IMG/VR virus record: IMGVR_UViG_3300025120_000051
Coordinates: 1-60,330 of that record
Origin: a virus
Lineage: Duplodnaviria > Caudoviricetes
Direction: 5' to 3' (one strand)
Length of the DNA: 60,330 bases
A program made the position numbers and the translations under genes. The notes under the pieces were generated by a model. The model saw nothing but the letters and a program-made list of their open reading frames with translations. It had not been told where the DNA came from and did not search any database. Below are positions 1 to 11,545 of this stretch, piece by piece (position 1 is the stretch's first letter; the number at the start of each line of letters is the position of its first letter).

Positions 1-1624
1 TAAAAGATATTCTTATTGTTGACGTACTTGCAGCTCCAGCAAAAGTTTTTCTTTCAATAAGACCTATAACTGTTTCTTTAGTTGATGAGTCAAACATTTC
101 TACTAAAACATCTTCAGTACCTAAATCGTGTACTATAGCAGCTTTTTTACCTGATACAAAACTAGAGTTAGATACGTCTATTGTTGAGTGTACTGATCTA
201 GCAGCTAACGTGTCAGGAGTTAATACCTTAGAAGCTTCAACACCAGCTATTGCTTCGGCAGCATTTGCTAGTTTAGTAATACCAAAAGTACTAGCATCAG
301 CTGTTGGCAGTGTTCTTGTAGCATGAGCTGTAATAACACCATCAGTCATTGTTAATGTGTCAATAACATCTACACCTGAAGTATCAATATCAGTGTCAGT
401 ACCTATTTGCGTATTATATGTACCAGAAGCTTGTTTACCATTTATTTGCGTTTGGATATCTGATGTTACACCATCTAAATAGTCAAACTCAGTTGATGTC
501 ACTCCTGTAGCTCTTAAATCTTTAGCGTAGTTTAAATCGTTGTGATCACCAGTAAAACCATCTATTTTATTTATTTCAGCAGGAGTTGCTGATATTGTTC
601 CACCAGCAGCGTTCGCTAAAAGAGCAACGTGACCAGATAAATTTGGTAGTGTTATTGTTTTATCACTACCAGTTGCATCTGAAGCAGTAAGTTTTATTTC
701 ATGAGCATCATCTGTGGTACCTTCAAATTGTATTGTATTATTTTCTACAACTTGTACAGTTTCATTTTGTACTGTTTGCGTTCCAGAAACTATTAAGTTA
801 CCAGGAATCGTGAATGTATCAGAAGAATCACCAATTGTACCAGCACCACCAAAACTAGCGTTTAACGCTGTTTTAACGTTTGCAGTATCAGTTACATCCG
901 CATTGTCTTCAACAGACTCTACAGTTGTTTTATGTGCGTTTGTGAAGCTATTTGCTGTTTGAGAAGCTACTGAAAAATTTAACTTTCCAGCACCAACACC
1001 ACCGTCAGTGTAAGTTACACTAATACCACTTTCAGTACCACCAGTTACCATACCACCAACGATATCTTGAACCTCTTCGTTCGTTAGTTGATGTGTATCA
1101 GTCCAAGGTACGTTTATAACACCTTTACCATTACTATCAACTTGCAAGCCGTATGTTCTACCATTTACAGACGTAGGATCAGCGGCGGCATTTACTGCTT
1201 GTACTGTAGAGCTAAATAGCTTTATTGTACCAGCACCCGTAGCACTTGCTGCGCTTGGAGCAGAACCAGTAATAGTTATTTCAGCATCACTAGCTCGTGA
1301 CACTGTTACGGTTCCAGCACCTGAGAACTTTATGTCATCAGTAGTATTTGATCCAGTTGTTGGAGTACCTGTTAATCTTAATAGTATACCCGAAGAATCT
1401 ACTACAGATTGTGAGAATACCGTATTGTCATCACTAACATCGGTAGATAGCGTTTTAAACCCTGTGTTACCAGTCTCTGCGCTATAGTACTTTAATTTGT
1501 GATCACCGGAATCGTAGTAAAACGCACCGGCTGCAGCGGTAGGAGCAGTGCCCGTAACGTGCATTTTAACATTTTTTAATTCCTGTCCACTTAAGTCCAG
1601 GTCATGGAGAAATTTAATTGCCAT
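1..1624 (-). CDS. Tail fibre / structural protein (3' end runs off the window)
   Basis: Not in ORF track. ATG at 1624 (MAIKFLHDLDLSGQELKNVKMH...); both ends translate in one frame as G/T/S/A-rich sequence typical of fibre proteins; co-oriented with upstream structural genes. Confidence 0.7.
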   Translation of the reverse strand, partial: MAIKFLHDLDLSGQELKNVKMHVTGTAPTAAAGAFYYDSGDHKLKYYSAETGNTGFKTLSTDVSDDNTVFSQSVVDSSGILLRLTGTPTTGSNTTDDIKFSGAGTVTVSRASDAEITITGSAPSAASATGAGTIKLFSSTVQAVNAAADPTSVNGRTYGLQVDSNGKGVINVPWTDTHQLTNEEVQDIVGGMVTGGTESGISVTYTDGGVGAGKLNFSVASQTANSFTNAHKTTVESVEDNADVTDTANVKTALNASFGGAGTIGDSSDTFTIPGNLIVSGTQTVQNETVQVVENNTIQFEGTTDDAHEIKLTASDATGSDKTITLPNLSGHVALLANAAGGTISATPAEINKIDGFTGDHNDLNYAKDLRATGVTSTEFDYLDGVTSDIQTQINGKQASGTYNTQIGTDTDIDTSGVDVIDTLTMTDGVITAHATRTLPTADASTFGITKLANAAEAIAGVEASKVLTPDTLAARSVHSTIDVSNSSFVSGKKAAIVHDLGTEDVLVEMFDSSTKETVIGLIERKTFAGAASTSTIRISF

Positions 1625-3391: not shown

Positions 3392-3645
3392 TCAACTATA
3401 ACTACATCACCATTTTTAATTACATAAAAAACTTTATCGTCAAACTCTATAGAATGACCAGCATGCTTATCATACCAAACAATATCTTCTTTGTTTATAC
3501 CTACAACTTGCTCGCCAATACTTATAACCTTACCTTTTAAGTACCTAATGTCAGTATTCTGCAACTCTGTCATTACAAACCCTGATTTAGATTTAGGTTT
3601 TTCTTTTATTTTATCTACAACTATATAATAATTAACTGCTTGCAT
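3388..3645 (-). CDS. groES: Co-chaperonin GroES
   Basis: 85 aa; mobile loop KSKSGFVM, GKVISIG, DVVIVE; adjacent to groEL. Confidence 0.9.
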   Translation of the reverse strand: MQAVNYYIVVDKIKEKPKSKSGFVMTELQNTDIRYLKGKVISIGEQVVGINKEDIVWYDKHAGHSIEFDDKVFYVIKNGDVVIVE

Positions 3646-5197
3646 TGTTCACTCTTCTATTACTTATTATACAATCTGCAGACACTATAGTCTTTACTAC
3701 ACTCACTGCATGTTTGAGCGCCGTTTTTGTAACCAAAACCGGATCTATTATACCATTTTTAATCATATTTACTTCTTCACCAGTTATAACATCTATACCA
3801 TAACCATCTTTTGAAGGTATATGAGGTGTTATGCCAGCATTATCAAGTATTGTTCTAAACGGTGATATAATAGCTTTACTTAATATCAACTCTCCATCAC
3901 TACCTTCAACTATTGTTGTTGCAGCATTTAGCAGAGCAATCCCACCACCAGGTACGATACCTTCTTGCAAAGCTGCTTTAGTAGCGTATATAGCGTCTTC
4001 TACTCTATCTTTTTTTTCTTTTAACTCAACTTGTGAGTTTGCACCTACTCTAACAATACCTACATTACCTGATAATATAGCTAAACGTTCTTGTAGTTTC
4101 TTTTTCATGAAAGGATCTTTTTGTTTTTCTATAGTTTTTTTAACTATATTTATTCTATCCTTAAATTGTGCTTCTGACTTGTCTACTGTTAGTATTGTGT
4201 TTTTGTTATCTGTAACACACTTAACTGCTTCACCTAAGAAGCTAGTGTCAACAAGATCAAAATCATCACCTAAACTTTCATTTATCAACTTAGCACCTGT
4301 AACAACAGCTAAGTCCTCCATTGTATCTTCTTTTGTTGGTCCAAAACCTGGAGAATCTATTATGTTTAGCTTTATGTTACCTTTTACTTTATTAGCTAAC
4401 AAGGCTGATTTAGGTACTTCTTCGACCTCACCTACTATAAGTAGTGATCTTTTCTTTTTAATAACATGTTCTAGTATAGGTTGTATACTTCTTATGCTTT
4501 GTATTGGCGTCACAGCTAATAGTACATAAGGATTATCTAATTCAGCAACCTCTCTACCTTTGTCAGTTATTAAGTAATTCGATGTTAGTGGACATTTTAA
4601 TTGTACTCCATCTACTACATCAGCATAAGTTTTATCTGTTTGTGACTCTTCTAACAGTACTACACTGTCTTTACCCACTCTATTATATGCTTCAGATATA
4701 ATTTTACCTAAAACCTTATCGTTATTACAACTAATCGTGCTAACGTGTTCTAGCATTTTACCAGATACATCTATCTTTATTTGGTCTAAATAATCATTAA
4801 CTTTACTTAAACCAGCATCAATACCTGCTTTTATATCTCTTATGTTATCTTTACCTTGATATTTTTCAATTTCACTTAACAGCGAGTAAGCAAGGACGGT
4901 TGCCGTAGTGGTACCGTCTCCTGCTTCTTTCACTGTGTTTCTAGCAGCTTCTTTGATAAGTGTCGCGCCTATATTCTCAACCGGATCATATAAGACTACA
5001 GATTCTGCAACTGTAACTCCGTCTTTTGTAATTACCGGTTTTCCGAGGGCATCCTCGTATATTACGCACTTACCAGAAGCGCCAAGGGTAGATTGAACTG
5101 CGTTTGCTAGCTGCTCAACTCCCAACATTATTTTACTCTTAGCATTACTGCCGAAAGTCAAATCTTTTACAATTTCACTTGGTTGATTGTATTCCAT
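3632..5197 (-). CDS. groEL: Chaperonin GroEL
   Basis: ITKDGVTVA, AGDGTTTATVLA, EGIVPGGG and GIIDP motifs. Confidence 0.97.
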   Translation of the reverse strand: MEYNQPSEIVKDLTFGSNAKSKIMLGVEQLANAVQSTLGASGKCVIYEDALGKPVITKDGVTVAESVVLYDPVENIGATLIKEAARNTVKEAGDGTTTATVLAYSLLSEIEKYQGKDNIRDIKAGIDAGLSKVNDYLDQIKIDVSGKMLEHVSTISCNNDKVLGKIISEAYNRVGKDSVVLLEESQTDKTYADVVDGVQLKCPLTSNYLITDKGREVAELDNPYVLLAVTPIQSIRSIQPILEHVIKKKRSLLIVGEVEEVPKSALLANKVKGNIKLNIIDSPGFGPTKEDTMEDLAVVTGAKLINESLGDDFDLVDTSFLGEAVKCVTDNKNTILTVDKSEAQFKDRINIVKKTIEKQKDPFMKKKLQERLAILSGNVGIVRVGANSQVELKEKKDRVEDAIYATKAALQEGIVPGGGIALLNAATTIVEGSDGELILSKAIISPFRTILDNAGITPHIPSKDGYGIDVITGEEVNMIKNGIIDPVLVTKTALKHAVSVVKTIVSADCIISNRRVNNASS

Positions 5198-9578: not shown

Positions 9579-9791
9579 ATGACAAAATGTAAATGTAATA
9601 ATATAATACCTCCGCAGCGGATAGCACTCGGTTATAAAGTTTGTGTTAACTGTAGCAGTACGGAAGCATATGGCTGTGTTAATATAACATACCATAAAAC
9701 GGGCAATACAATTCAGATATTACCAAAAGCCCAAGCTGCCAGAATACGTAAGCTATCCGCTCGTAGAGGTTATGGCACATGCCTAAGATAA
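9579..9791 (+). CDS. DksA/TraR-type C4 zinc-finger protein
   Basis: CxC..IPPQRIALGYKVCVNC matches the C..IPxxRLxA..CxxC finger pattern. Confidence 0.6.
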   Translation: MTKCKCNNIIPPQRIALGYKVCVNCSSTEAYGCVNITYHKTGNTIQILPKAQAARIRKLSARRGYGTCLR

Positions 9792-9804
9792 TAAGTAAAT
9801 AAAT

Positions 9805-10017
9805 ATGAGTGATTCAATAAAAGCATGGCACGAAATGCAAGAAGAAAATAAAGTATCTATATCCGTAGATAAAGATTTAATACTAGTAAATAAACTACTA
9901 GCGTTGAGTAACGAGCAAAAGCTATTAGATATAGATCAAGCTTTAAAAGAATATGAAGGTAATGTTGTAGATAAATGGCAACTTATCAACAGAATAGAGA
10001 AAATAATGTCGCGTTGA
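9805..10017 (+). CDS. Hypothetical protein
   Basis: ORF track. Confidence 0.7.
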   Translation: MSDSIKAWHEMQEENKVSISVDKDLILVNKLLALSNEQKLLDIDQALKEYEGNVVDKWQLINRIEKIMSR

Positions 10018-10081
10018 GGCGTGACAAACTCCTTCACGGGAATACACGGTTGCGCTCGTGCTGAAAACAAGTGAAGGATTA

Positions 10082-10167
10082 GGGAGTGATAAGGTAAGTA
10101 AAGCGAATAAATAACAGGTTACCGAGTCCAAATGCTTTAAACGGCGGTTCGATTCCGCCCACTTCCA
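10082..10167 (+). ncRNA. Miniature tmRNA-like RNA (tRNA-like domain)
   Basis: Acceptor GGGAGTG/CACTTCC with G3:U70 and A73; stemless D-loop; P2-like helix TAAAGCG/TGCTTTA; 3-nt AAC linker; T-arm GGCGG-TTCGATT-CCGCC. Confidence 0.7.
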
Positions 10168-10265
10168 CAATAAATGAATCCGAAGAGGTCAGTGTGCTTG
10201 ACACTGAACAAAACAAGCGAACACATGTCAGGCGAGTACTTCACAGAAAAACTAACGATGACTAA

Positions 10266-10386
10266 TAACTAGGTATGGTTAAGCGATTACCGGAGCGTAA
10301 GCTCGATCGTGGTGCGCAGAGCGTAAGCTCGATCGTGGTGCGCAGACTACCGACGGGTATGAGGTTCGATTCCTCACTAGTTACTA
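10266..10386 (+). ncRNA. tRNA-like RNA with non-canonical core
   Basis: TAACTAG/CTAGTTA acceptor-like stem; T-arm TGAGG-TTCGATT-CCTCA; internal GAGC-GTAA-GCTC hairpin; no recognisable anticodon arm. Confidence 0.6.
10293..10344. repeat. Perfect 26-bp tandem duplication
   Basis: GAGCGTAAGCTCGATCGTGGTGCGCA twice. Confidence 0.95.
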
Positions 10387-10404
10387 ACTTTAAATTAAAT
10401 AAAT

Positions 10405-10587
10405 ATGATTAGTAAAAACGAGTTTCAAGCGTACGTAAACGTACAAGAGTCAGGTGTAACAAACATGTTCGATGTAAGGACAGTATCTTCTCTATCTGGT
10501 TTGTCAAAAGCAAAAATAATGGATATAATGAAAAATTATAGCCAGTATCTAGGTACGTACATTTTAAATACGAATGAAGTAGGATAA
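10405..10587 (+). CDS. DUF5049-like small protein
   Basis: VQESGVTNMFDVRTV motif. Confidence 0.6.
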   Translation: MISKNEFQAYVNVQESGVTNMFDVRTVSSLSGLSKAKIMDIMKNYSQYLGTYILNTNEVG

Positions 10588-10589
10588 TA
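10558..10589 (+). promoter_or_regulatory. Putative early promoter 6
   Basis: TACATTTTAAATACGA-N8-GGATAATA. Confidence 0.8.
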
Positions 10590-10608
10590 ATATAAACAAA
10601 TAAATAAT

Positions 10609-10842
10609 ATGTCAAAATTAAAAACCGTCTACGACAATCTATTGCCCGACGTTAAATCAAGCTTGCAGGCTAGTGCTAGAAAGTACAACTCTGCTAAAAG
10701 ACTTAAGTATACTCTTATGTCTAAAATGATGTGGTCAGAGTTGACAATCGATGAGATGAGAGACGTTGTAACTTACGGTAACTTAAACAGTTGGGAATTA
10801 GACTGTTACAGCTTTATGTATGGTGAAAAAATCGTGAAATAA
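10609..10842 (+). CDS. Hypothetical protein
   Basis: ORF track. Confidence 0.75.
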   Translation: MSKLKTVYDNLLPDVKSSLQASARKYNSAKRLKYTLMSKMMWSELTIDEMRDVVTYGNLNSWELDCYSFMYGEKIVK

Positions 10843-11099
10843 TGAAAGCTACAAAACTACCCAAGTGGTTTAAAGGTTCTAAATATGAATCTGGAGACAC
10901 AGTAACAAATCCGTTTAGCGGAGAAAAATATGATTTAACAGGCGAAGAATTAAGTATGTACGATTTTATAATTGGTTGTCAATTAGTAATGGAAAAATTA
11001 CCAAGATCAATATCAGCAACCCACGTTAATGACTTTCAAAAAGGTCTTGACTGGTTCAGAAAAAATAACGCCAAAGCATATATGGTCTTACTAGACTAA
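10842..11099 (+). CDS. Hypothetical protein (C-terminal AYMVLLD)
   Basis: ORF track; 1-nt overlap with previous stop. Confidence 0.8.
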   Translation: MKATKLPKWFKGSKYESGDTVTNPFSGEKYDLTGEELSMYDFIIGCQLVMEKLPRSISATHVNDFQKGLDWFRKNNAKAYMVLLD

Positions 11100-11114
11100 T
11101 TATGCTATACATTT

Positions 11115-11186
11115 TGCGCGGTAGAGCAGCGGTAGCTCGTTGGGTTCATATCCCAAAGGTCGGAGGTTCGAACCCTCCCTGCGCAC
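11115..11186 (+). tRNA. tRNA-Met(CAT), initiator type
   Basis: Full cloverleaf; GGG/CCC at the base of the anticodon stem and A11:U24 are initiator hallmarks; CCA not encoded. Confidence 0.92.
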
Positions 11187-11200
11187 CTAAAATAATAAAT

Positions 11201-11545
11201 ATGAAGAACACAGATTTTGATATCTTAGCAAGCAAGTTAGCCGACTTAGCTAAAGATACTATGAAGAAAAAAGGCCCAGAATACACTAATGAGCACACGG
11301 ATGTGCTAAACAACTTTAAAGCTACGGGTAAAAGACTAAACATCTCACCCATCAAAGTGTGGAGTATATTCATGGACAAACAAATACAAAGTATAATGGC
11401 GCATGTCAATAATCCTAATCTTGATAAAGCTGAAAGTATAGACTCTAGATTTGCAGATGTAATCAATTACTGTTATCTAGGTAATGCTTTGTTTAACGAA
11501 AGAGATTCAGGAGCAATTAAAGAAGTATTCAACGATGTCAACTAG
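11201..11545 (+). CDS. Nucleotide-modification-associated (Nmad1/DUF1599-like) helical protein
   Basis: KKGPEY..DVLNNFK..K..ESIDSRFADVINY pattern; start moved to 11201 because the longer ORF spans the tRNA. Confidence 0.55.
   Translation: MKNTDFDILASKLADLAKDTMKKKGPEYTNEHTDVLNNFKATGKRLNISPIKVWSIFMDKQIQSIMAHVNNPNLDKAESIDSRFADVINYCYLGNALFNERDSGAIKEVFNDVN

Follow-up and report, generated by a model that had tools for sequence, protein, structure and literature searches.

An uncultured phage record in IMG/VR (IMGVR_UViG_3300025120_000051; completeness estimate 84%) carries on its + strand, at 10082-10167, an element of 86 bases that by direct reading has the form of a tRNA-like domain (TLD), the head of transfer-messenger RNA (tmRNA). 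The record was analysed over its whole length of 60,330 bases and is referred to here as the window. We call this form of the TLD type A; its sister types B and C are described below. The parts of the element are:

10082-10088, +: 5′ strand of the acceptor stem, GGGAGTG, in which G3 is the G at 10084; pairs with 10160-10166; invariant in 22 of 22 type A sequences
10089-10098, +: stemless analogue of the D loop, ATAAGGTAAG, ten unpaired bases with a GG doublet; unpaired in 20 of 24 constrained folds
10099-10105, +: 5′ strand of the P2 helix, TAAAGCG; pairs with 10133-10139; both partners vary in each of the 7 pairs
10106-10132, +: loop of 27 nucleotides (nt) at the centre of a conserved hairpin module, GCGAATAAATAACAGGTTACCGAGTCCAAATGC (10103-10135), which also takes in the inner P2 pairs
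10133-10139, +: 3′ strand of the P2 helix, TGCTTTA, from direct reading and covariation
10140-10142, +: 3-nt linker, AAC; invariant in 22 of 22 type A sequences
10143-10159, +: T arm, GGCGG-TTCGATT-CCGCC; stem invariant in type A, with three of its five pairs covarying across types A, B and C
10160-10167, +: 3′ strand of the acceptor stem, CACTTCC, and discriminator A73; U70 is the T at 10164 and A73 is at 10167

An earlier note on this DNA had proposed a G3:U70/A73 acceptor, a stemless D loop, a P2 helix, a 3-nt linker and a T arm. All of these are present, and P2 lies at exactly the positions that were given for it. The note's span of 10082-10169 is right at its start and too long at its end, where the last two genomic bases (CA) fall outside the conserved element. 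CCA is not encoded; the trailer reads CAAT in the window and CTAA in most relatives, and a discriminator A follows the acceptor stem in every element listed. The body of tmRNA is absent, with the 27-nt loop standing in place of the usual pseudoknot and mRNA domain as the note had described, and the same short form is found in many contigs.

Standard gene-finding tools overlook these genes. ARAGORN on the window region and Rfam at gathering thresholds on the window each called only a tRNA-Met; on seven loci that include six type A elements, Rfam at gathering thresholds called none of those elements, and ARAGORN missed every head-only element. The tRNA cloverleaf of RF00005 (D stem, 5-bp anticodon stem and 7-nt loop) is absent, and there is no tRNA match at the gathering threshold. 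The unconstrained minimum-free-energy fold has a z-score of -2.11, with 6 of 200 shuffles folding at least as well, and prefers another pairing over P2. This alternative, GGTAA/TTACC, was rejected: type B elements have the module but not the D-loop bases that would pair with it, and free-standing copies of the module exist as well.

Conservation and covariation in uncultured phages

Scanning IMG/VR with the first 17 bases of the element returned 36 loci, comprising 30 complete elements and 6 chance matches without a 3′ half. The 30 further contigs carry 27 different dataset prefixes and, together with the window, give a family of 31 members with 24 unique type A sequences. A scan with the last 25 bases, matched exactly, returned 19 loci, of which 17 are copies of the element and the other two are a permuted tmRNA (L005) and a tRNA-Ala (L018). 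These 25 bases, which cover the T arm and the 3′ acceptor strand, are thus identical to the ends of both the permuted tmRNA and the tRNA-Ala.

Type A sequences do not vary in the first 17 or the last 28 bases, save for position 15, the only variable position of the D-loop analogue, and one base of the T loop. The middle of the element, which we call the arm, ranges from 28 to 132 nt, and no alignment is possible across the sub-families of the 24 unique sequences. When the acceptor stem and T arm are held fixed, 20 of the 24 fold with 10-11 unpaired bases, a single hairpin starting from position 18 or 19, and a 3-base linker. Covariation in P2 was assessed in a MAFFT alignment of 22 of the 24 unique sequences, leaving out the two longest arms. 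All seven P2 pairs change on both sides, and the covariation score of the helix is 0.191, compared with 0.055 +/- 0.012 for shuffled data (reached in 0 of 500 shuffles); slid partners score no higher than 0.085. In some members the helix begins one base later, which is part of the reason that just 72% of P2 cells are paired in this alignment. Searched with R1, a covariance model of the type A family, the window gives a single full match, which scores 87.4 bits.

The flanks are much more diverged than the element. At 23 related loci the longest alignments are 67-77% identical to the window, with weighted means of 70-83% that are lower where more than 1 kb aligns. The tRNA-Met of relatives is 82-84% identical, and the 45-nt TLD core differs at only two positions; in L002 the whole 88-base stretch is 100% identical to the window in a 70% background. 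Because the fold covaries and the core is conserved amid diverged flanks, the element is a real gene under strong constraint and not a chance structure. The comparison with related phages that the earlier note had suggested has thus yielded a covarying fold and a family of 31 members. The note had also raised the possibility of a collapsed assembly of a full-length ssrA, which does not hold because the same short form is seen in 30 contigs with 27 dataset prefixes.

The element was not detected outside these viral contigs. Megablast and blastn of the window region against 50,697 phage records gave no match, and blastn of types A and C against the same records gave only 21-33-nt matches to the T arm and acceptor, for example in Streptomyces phage tmRNAs. 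A gapped type A pattern allowing arms of 28-58 nt had 0 matches in 185,579 species genomes. Searches with R1 found nothing convincing in MW202828, elemoE 6-9C, phi19:3 and Calle_1, where the best match was 22 bits, and in 101 genomes from the class of a Bacteroidota metagenome-assembled genome (MAG) found a single 31.7-bit match of 73 nt that looks like tRNA-Ala.

Relation to the tmRNA head

Two sister types connect type A to tmRNA. Type B (15 loci) starts GGGCGTGAAATGGTTAGAC and has the acceptor GGGCGTG/CACGTCC, T stems GCAGG/CCTGC or GCGGG/CCCGC, the D-loop tail GGTTAGAC, the linker (T/A)AAC and the trailer CTAA. It occurs with at least nine different arms, several of which are type A modules; besides these modules it has the AAC linker, the CTAA trailer and the array slot in common with type A. 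Type C starts GGGGGTGATATGGTTTTGAC and has a short arm, the D-loop tail GGTTTTGAC and the linker GGAA; it was found at five loci (L054, L071, L072, L073 and L074), one of which is:

L054 12761-12839, -: type C head-only tmRNA, 79 nt; above the Rfam tmRNA cut-off and missed by ARAGORN

On the tmRNA family RF00023, whose cut-off is 47 bits, type C scores 64.7 and 56.1 bits, 12 nt taking the place of 304 model positions; the scoring was carried out in E-value mode on L054, whose sequence the other four loci share almost exactly. Type C agrees with the tmRNA of a Bacteroidota MAG at 19 of its first 20 positions and throughout the 3′ acceptor strand. With R1, for which type A sequences alone were used, type B elements reach 42-61 bits and type C elements 46-47 bits. 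Ungapped, the type A 5′ 17-mer is identical to type B at 13 of 17 positions, to type C at 12 of 17 and to the short ssrA of Mycobacterium phage DS6A (see below) at 8 of 17; it matches three tmRNAs at 11, 11 and 8 of 17 and three tRNA-Ala genes at 5, 6 and 8 of 17. In L074 the 3′ strand of type C yields both G3:U and G4:U. A type C 5′ pattern had 20 matches across many phyla, only four of them labelled Bacteroidota or a Bacteroidota family, and is unusable for naming a host.

Sister types B and C appear from their sequences to grade into the canonical head of Bacteroidota-type tmRNA, and this series, present in the same phage arrays, supports the earlier proposal of a tmRNA-kind head with an alanine-type acceptor and no body. 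We consider it likely that the element is a head-only (TLD-only) relative of tmRNA. Of the features of RF00023, the element has the G3:U70/A73 acceptor, the T arm, the stemless D loop with GG, and P2 in the place of the anticodon stem. The D-loop tail and linker of the model (..GGaUUCGAC .. GGAC) are not those of type A, in which the linker is AAC; pseudoknots PK1-PK4 are absent, 300 model positions being replaced by 27 nt in the window; and the mRNA-like domain, with its resume codon, conserved tag frame and stop, is missing, no frame being conserved in the 24 unique sequences. The Rfam E-value listing for the window has tmRNA at this place and no tRNA that overlaps it; by rule, the listing retains only the best-scoring family of a clan.

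To examine the alanine identity pair across the three types, 41 sequences of types A, B and C were aligned to R1, which gives an alignment that leans towards the model structure. In these sequences the acceptor stem and T arm are 100% paired and G3:U70 is kept in 40 of 41. The adjacent pair 4:69 covaries (AU in 23, CG in 15, GC in 2 and GU in 1), as do three pairs of the T arm. G3:U70 and A73 together direct charging by alanyl-tRNA synthetase (AlaRS) and constitute the alanine identity. The retention of an unstable G:U pair while neighbouring pairs change suggests that charging matters; the element is probably alanylated and probably engages SmpB. The retention of the pair also weakly favours entry into the ribosome over pure titration of SmpB.

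Two of the contigs carry a pair of heads. L034 has two head-only RNAs at 79-158 and 162-257 (+), only 3 bases (CTA) apart, of which the second is type A and the first has the acceptor GGACGTG/CACGTCC. L052 has two head copies, at 341-434 and 825-914.

Several observations weigh against the tmRNA reading. The window scores only 31.0 bits on RF00023 (cut-off 47) and its type A relatives 33-38 bits, and an ordinary tRNA-Ala(CGC) of the Bacteroidota MAG scores 33.4 bits, at least as well as the window. Because the window does no better than a tRNA-Ala on this measure, we argue kinship with tmRNA through the chain of types B and C, the modules, the linker, the trailer and the array slot. The Rfam D-loop consensus cuGGaUUCGAC is deleted in the type A alignment, type A keeping the GG and a shortened tail, and the 8 of 17 match to the type A 5′ 17-mer noted above among the tmRNAs is that of G003. 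The upstream copy in L034 (79-158) is a variant with A3:U70 and may be unchargeable. About 100 nt downstream of the element, a second tRNA-like scaffold (element 2) has the same layout of acceptor, T arm and variable arm without G3:U70, and arm modules also recur in scaffolds that are not tRNA-like. No SmpB gene was found in the window record, which is 84% complete. In four RNA-library runs, searched as assembled contigs and not as reads, no contig spans the element: the matches are only 31-99-nt pieces within otherwise unlike contigs, and a 198-nt contig (depth 50) that holds the arm module 10101-10141 in unlike flanks is a contig and no proof of expression. The host is likely a marine flavobacterium, an assignment made solely through relatives of TerL, which in the window is 63% identical to that of an uncultured podovirus, 44.5% to those of Flavobacterium 'elemo' phages and about 36% to those of Cellulophaga phages.

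The closest precedent is the ssrA of DS6A, which is described as 'TLD only' (Hudson, Lau and Williams 2014, PMC4131195; also PMC11915505; tmRNA Website tmID 11587). The earlier note gave mitochondrial tmRNAs without an mRNA domain as the known parallel and lacked this phage case. Its idea that the RNA might titrate SmpB is already in print for the DS6A form: according to Hudson et al., a similar TLD-only molecule strongly inhibits tmRNA, perhaps through SmpB titration, a statement for which they cite Mao et al. 2009 (PMC4131195). We located the DS6A element at JN698994 28478-28560 (83 nt, CTA trailer), where it scores 43.2 bits on RF00023, below the cut-off. Like the window element it is phage-borne, has G3:U70 and A73, a stemless D loop, P2, a short arm, a 3-nt linker and a T arm, and combines a sub-cut-off tmRNA score with the lack of a coding part and of an encoded CCA. 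Beyond the fold the two have no sequence relation, as the match of 8 of 17 in the 5′ 17-mer indicates. DS6A keeps a tmRNA-type D-loop tail ending in GAC, whereas the type A tail is shortened, and the host phylum and phage type differ. DS6A is also a single reported case with one arm, compared with three TLD types, at least 50 elements and 39 arms here.

Coding-sequence-less tmRNAs are further described from organelles, in jakobid and other mitochondria (RF02544) and as plastid forms of about 65 bp in Mallomonadaceae (PMC11915505, PMC3590771). As presented there, these resemble the window element in having the tRNA-like part only and no tag frame, and are thought to act with SmpB without tagging; they differ in being vertically inherited reductions and not phage genes, and no hypervariable arm is reported in those accounts. 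RF02544 was not listed for the window at E-values up to 10, possibly because it was hidden by the rule of one best family per clan. A TLD-only tmRNA accepts peptidyl transfer in vitro, according to PMC3895274, which cites Shimizu and Ueda 2006.

Full-length tmRNAs are also carried by phages. Cellulophaga phage Calle_1 is reported to have 20 tRNAs and one tmRNA (PMC8776804), and we find the latter, in a phage whose TerL is 36% identical to that of the window, at NC_062744 42950-43311 (362 nt, 86.6 bits). Like the window element it is phage-borne, lies among tRNA genes and ends in the same ACTAA context. ARAGORN assigns it a 22-codon tag, AQIEANMEAVNAILNLEVAVGV, which the program does not recognise and which does not end in the usual alanine pair. 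Other full-length examples are the two-piece tmRNAs of the OM43 phage Melnitz and of pelagiphages (PMC9004378) and those of Bxz1-group mycobacteriophages (PMC4131195). Such RNAs have at least 360 nt, pseudoknots and a tag frame, and the window element has none of these. Because a distant relative has a full-length tmRNA, a route from a full-length phage tmRNA to the head-only form is plausible in this lineage. Compared with bacterial tmRNA and tRNA-Ala, the window element has the alanine identity elements, T arm and acceptor stem of both; it differs from tmRNA in lacking the mRNA-like domain and pseudoknots, and from tRNA in lacking a D stem, a 7-nt anticodon loop and an anticodon.

Among published descriptions we found none of such a family beyond the remarks on DS6A, although Table S1 of PMC9004378, which covers 402 tmRNA phages, may list further short forms. 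Previously, TLD-only tmRNAs were known from one mycobacteriophage, from a small number of organellar examples and as an engineered molecule that reportedly blocks trans-translation. What is new here is a sizeable TLD-only family of three types in uncultured marine phages of the flavobacterial podovirus type, in which the arm is a slot for shuffled modules.

The variable arm and possible functions

The hypervariable arm takes 39 unique forms among 51 TLD elements in 83 sources. Scanning with 18 bases of the window's loop identified five loci (L052-L056) besides the window and L002, and the 33-nt core at 10103-10135 is identical in all seven. It is found in type A TLDs, in type B TLDs (L052 and L055) and free-standing upstream of a head (L053 and L054), and in L056 it forms a hairpin after an open reading frame (ORF) on a 113-kb contig. 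A blastn-short comparison checked by eye shows at least nine distinct arm modules in other phages at places outside heads; an automated count that placed 24 of 39 arms 'outside' is an overestimate, as its pattern missed variant TLDs (L034 79-158, L052 825-914 and L074). Modules can also be nested: the arm of L004 is the L008 module with its GAAA loop interrupted by about 59 nt. Compensatory changes are seen within the arm sub-families L012/L021/L025 and L007/L015/L033. In L006 (10368-10544, -) the 132-nt arm holds a partial TLD 5′ end (GGGAGTGATT...) nested in module sequence, suggesting repeated insertion or recombination within the arm.

The same modules occupy the variable arms of two scaffolds that are not tRNA-like, S2 and S3. 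The first was found at these places:

L022 651-760, L004 650-735, L029 165-260, L030 7830-7930, L054 12930-13010 and L125: scaffold S2, flanks AGCTAGACGAGTAGCTTAATTAGGT ... ACATAAGTGAATAGCTAGCT, with a variable arm that carries TLD-arm modules

The closing helix of S2 covaries (AGCTAG/CTAGCT, AGCAGG/CCTGCT and AGCCAG/CTGGC). Scaffold S3 (GAGGCGGCGGCATAC.GGTCA ... ATAATACTAGTTA ... ACTGGTGCCTC) likewise has a variable arm with TLD-arm modules. We read the arm of the TLD as a permissive slot for swappable hairpin modules. More tentatively, and with considerable doubt, we suggest that one pool of short hairpin modules, each with a conserved sequence, is shuffled among at least four scaffold RNAs (types A and B, the second non-alanine scaffold, S2 and S3), with the head as vehicle and the arm as payload. 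On such a cassette model the alanine-accepting head would carry a module to AlaRS, EF-Tu, SmpB or a stalled ribosome, or would stabilise it within a mature RNA of tRNA-like form.

We propose that the element is a phage gene for a TLD-only tmRNA, in which the head and P2 would have been kept and the mRNA-like part and pseudoknots replaced by one hairpin arm. By analogy with established tmRNA biology (PMC3985003), the RNA would be cut out like a tRNA, through 5′ cleavage by RNase P, 3′ trimming and CCA addition. The host AlaRS would then charge it with alanine, and EF-Tu and SmpB would bind. Because there is no resume codon, no degradation tag could be added, and at most the nascent chain would be accepted. 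The RNA might compete with host tmRNA both for SmpB and for stalled ribosomes, so that fewer proteins made during infection are tagged, or it might rescue ribosomes itself, with the addition of one alanine and with release left to another factor. The arm would be permissive for inserted hairpin modules because it is expected to project where P2 leaves the ribosome in tmRNA. On balance we lean towards this proposal as a whole, that is, towards a TLD-only tmRNA relative that is charged, engages SmpB or ribosomes and has a permissive arm. Its natural variants make it experimentally approachable to ask how a phage benefits from a tmRNA that does not tag.

The same observations on the arm could mean that the TLD is only a handle, providing RNase P and 3′ processing, CCA, stability or delivery, and that the interchangeable modules are the functional units, for instance as protein-binding decoys or aptamers. 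The hypervariability of the arms would fit this, as would the recurrence of at least nine modules outside TLDs (in S2, in S3 and as free hairpins), the identity of the window's 33-nt core over seven loci and three kinds of context, which indicates constraint on its sequence, the compensatory changes inside arms, and a second, non-alanine tRNA-like scaffold family with the same layout. A handle alone, however, leaves unexplained why G3:U70 persists while its neighbours change and why the unpaired positions of the TLD are nearly invariant. The short arms of type C (five loci, with a 12-16-nt loop) and of DS6A have no evident cargo, and none of the 39 TLD arms has a module of at least 20 nt that lies in an element-2 arm at 90% identity or above. 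We take this explanation seriously and think it somewhat unlikely; it and the tmRNA reading are not mutually exclusive.

A further explanation is that the RNA mimics the head of host tmRNA or tRNA-Ala as a decoy, soaking up a host defence or nuclease such as proteins with SmpB-like domains or acceptor-stem toxins. CoCoNuT type IV restriction systems contain SmpB-like (SPB) domains predicted to bind tmRNA (PMC11090510), a staphylococcal phage anti-CRISPR is reported to act through t(m)RNA fragments (PMC11662646), and the close mimicry of a Bacteroidota tmRNA head that type C shows is equally compatible with a decoy and with SmpB titration. The sequence gives nothing that separates these two. 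A passive decoy may not need charging, however, whereas the retention of G3:U70 suggests that charging matters, and we regard the decoy as improbable.

That the element has no function, being a decayed piece of a tRNA-Ala or tmRNA, the remnant of an attachment site or a misassembled full-length ssrA, could be suspected from its 25-nt 3′ end, which is common to a tmRNA and a tRNA-Ala as at attachment sites, and from the silence of ARAGORN and of Rfam at gathering thresholds. This is very hard to reconcile with the presence and conservation of both acceptor-stem halves, the covariation in P2, acceptor stem and T arm, the 30 contigs with the same short form, a core more conserved than the adjacent tRNA-Met, and the lack of an integrase in the record and of any copy (arms of 28-58 nt) in the species genomes.

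A working miniature tmRNA, with the 27-nt loop translated from GGT into an (A)GYRVQML tag, is just as improbable. The earlier note had pointed to this frame, and the letters are literally in the window, GGT..TAA reading GYRVQML-stop with T and A at -5/-4. As a tag template the frame fails, since it is not conserved in the 24 unique sequences: apart from the window it is seen in L002 alone, whose copy is identical, the other 22 give unrelated peptides in every frame, and the arms of L007 and L015 have no stop codon in any frame. Its last codons also fall in the covarying strand of P2, and the type C loop of 12-16 bases speaks against a tag as well. The mRNA reading was rejected because the 33-nt core is kept base for base in such different settings, including outside any TLD.

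The surrounding RNA island

The element sits in a 390-base gap among small ORFs of the + strand, the strand also used by the neighbouring early and replication genes. The other RNA features of this island are:

10030-10078, +: upstream hairpin module (TCCTTCAC ... GTGAAGGA); kept in L012 and L013 with compensatory stem changes
10189-10207, +: spacer hairpin of 7 bp, TCAGTGT-GCTTG-ACACTGA; the same spacer precedes the copy of element 2 in L118
10266-10384, +: element 2, the second tRNA-like scaffold, with acceptor TAACTAG/CTAGTTA and T arm TGAGG-TTCGATT-CCTCA
11115-11187, +: ordinary tRNA-Met(CAT), which closes the island; called by ARAGORN and, at 62.4 bits, by Rfam

Element 2 has a discriminator C, no G3:U70 and no recognisable anticodon arm, and was missed by ARAGORN and Rfam. 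Its arm contains a perfect 26-nt tandem duplication (10294-10319 and 10320-10345). A further 23 IMG/VR loci belong to its family, which has a conserved 5′ part (NAACTAGGTATGG), a conserved 3′ part and hypervariable arms, and which suggests a more general scaffold role. The arms of this family carry other pieces of the window's island: the core of the upstream hairpin (ACACGGTTGCGCTCGTGCTGAAAACAA) lies within those of L109 and L122, and the module of the window's own element 2 within that of L108. The latter module occupies the S3 slot in L030. Arm modules common to other island scaffolds point to a layer of small structured RNAs in these phages that has escaped annotation.

In most relatives with enough flank, a tRNA-Met lies within a few hundred bases 3′ of the TLD RNA. 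In L002, L007, L013, L022 and others, two conserved structured elements that are absent from the window, E2 and E3, lie just 3′ of it; neither has an Rfam match. E2 (about 95 nt) has the closing helix AGAGAGATG/CATCTCTCT or AGAGGGGTG/CACCTCTCT, and E3 (about 85 nt) is closed by ACCGGCT/AGCCGGT. The inner hairpin loop of E2 varies between GTAC, GCGC and GATC and is self-complementary in each case, a property that a loop-loop dimer contact or a palindromic DNA site would be expected to have. GOLLD and ROOL, large ornate phage-associated RNAs found beside tRNA genes (bioRxiv 10.1101/2024.12.08.627333, PMC5737381), resemble the island only, in that both comprise unannotated structured RNAs clustered with phage tRNA genes; the self-complementary loops of E2 in relatives are a further likeness. 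Unlike them, the island gives no match to their Rfam families and consists of separate small elements, whose assembly is only conceivable.

A scan of 9700-11300 for terminators and for promoters of the sigma-70 kind, a kind that does not cover those of Bacteroidota, was uninformative, with 8 promoter-like sites where 5.4 +/- 2.4 are expected, and 0 terminators. Ten neighbouring small ORFs belong to no PHROG family, apart from one weak match to a family of unknown function. No tyrosine integrase and no CCA-adding enzyme family was found in the window record at its 84% completeness. A mechanically called ORF of 147 aa (11102-11545, +) overlaps the tRNA-Met on the same strand, and if it is a gene its true start lies further downstream. 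Other genes of the window encode a primase-helicase, a ribonucleotide reductase, a DNA ligase, GroEL, a portal protein and a terminase. The GroEL-type chaperonin is at 3632-5197 (-) and matches PHROG 5725 (E = 2.9e-131); MW202828, the nearest uncultured relative, is annotated with groEL together with a 10-kDa co-chaperonin.

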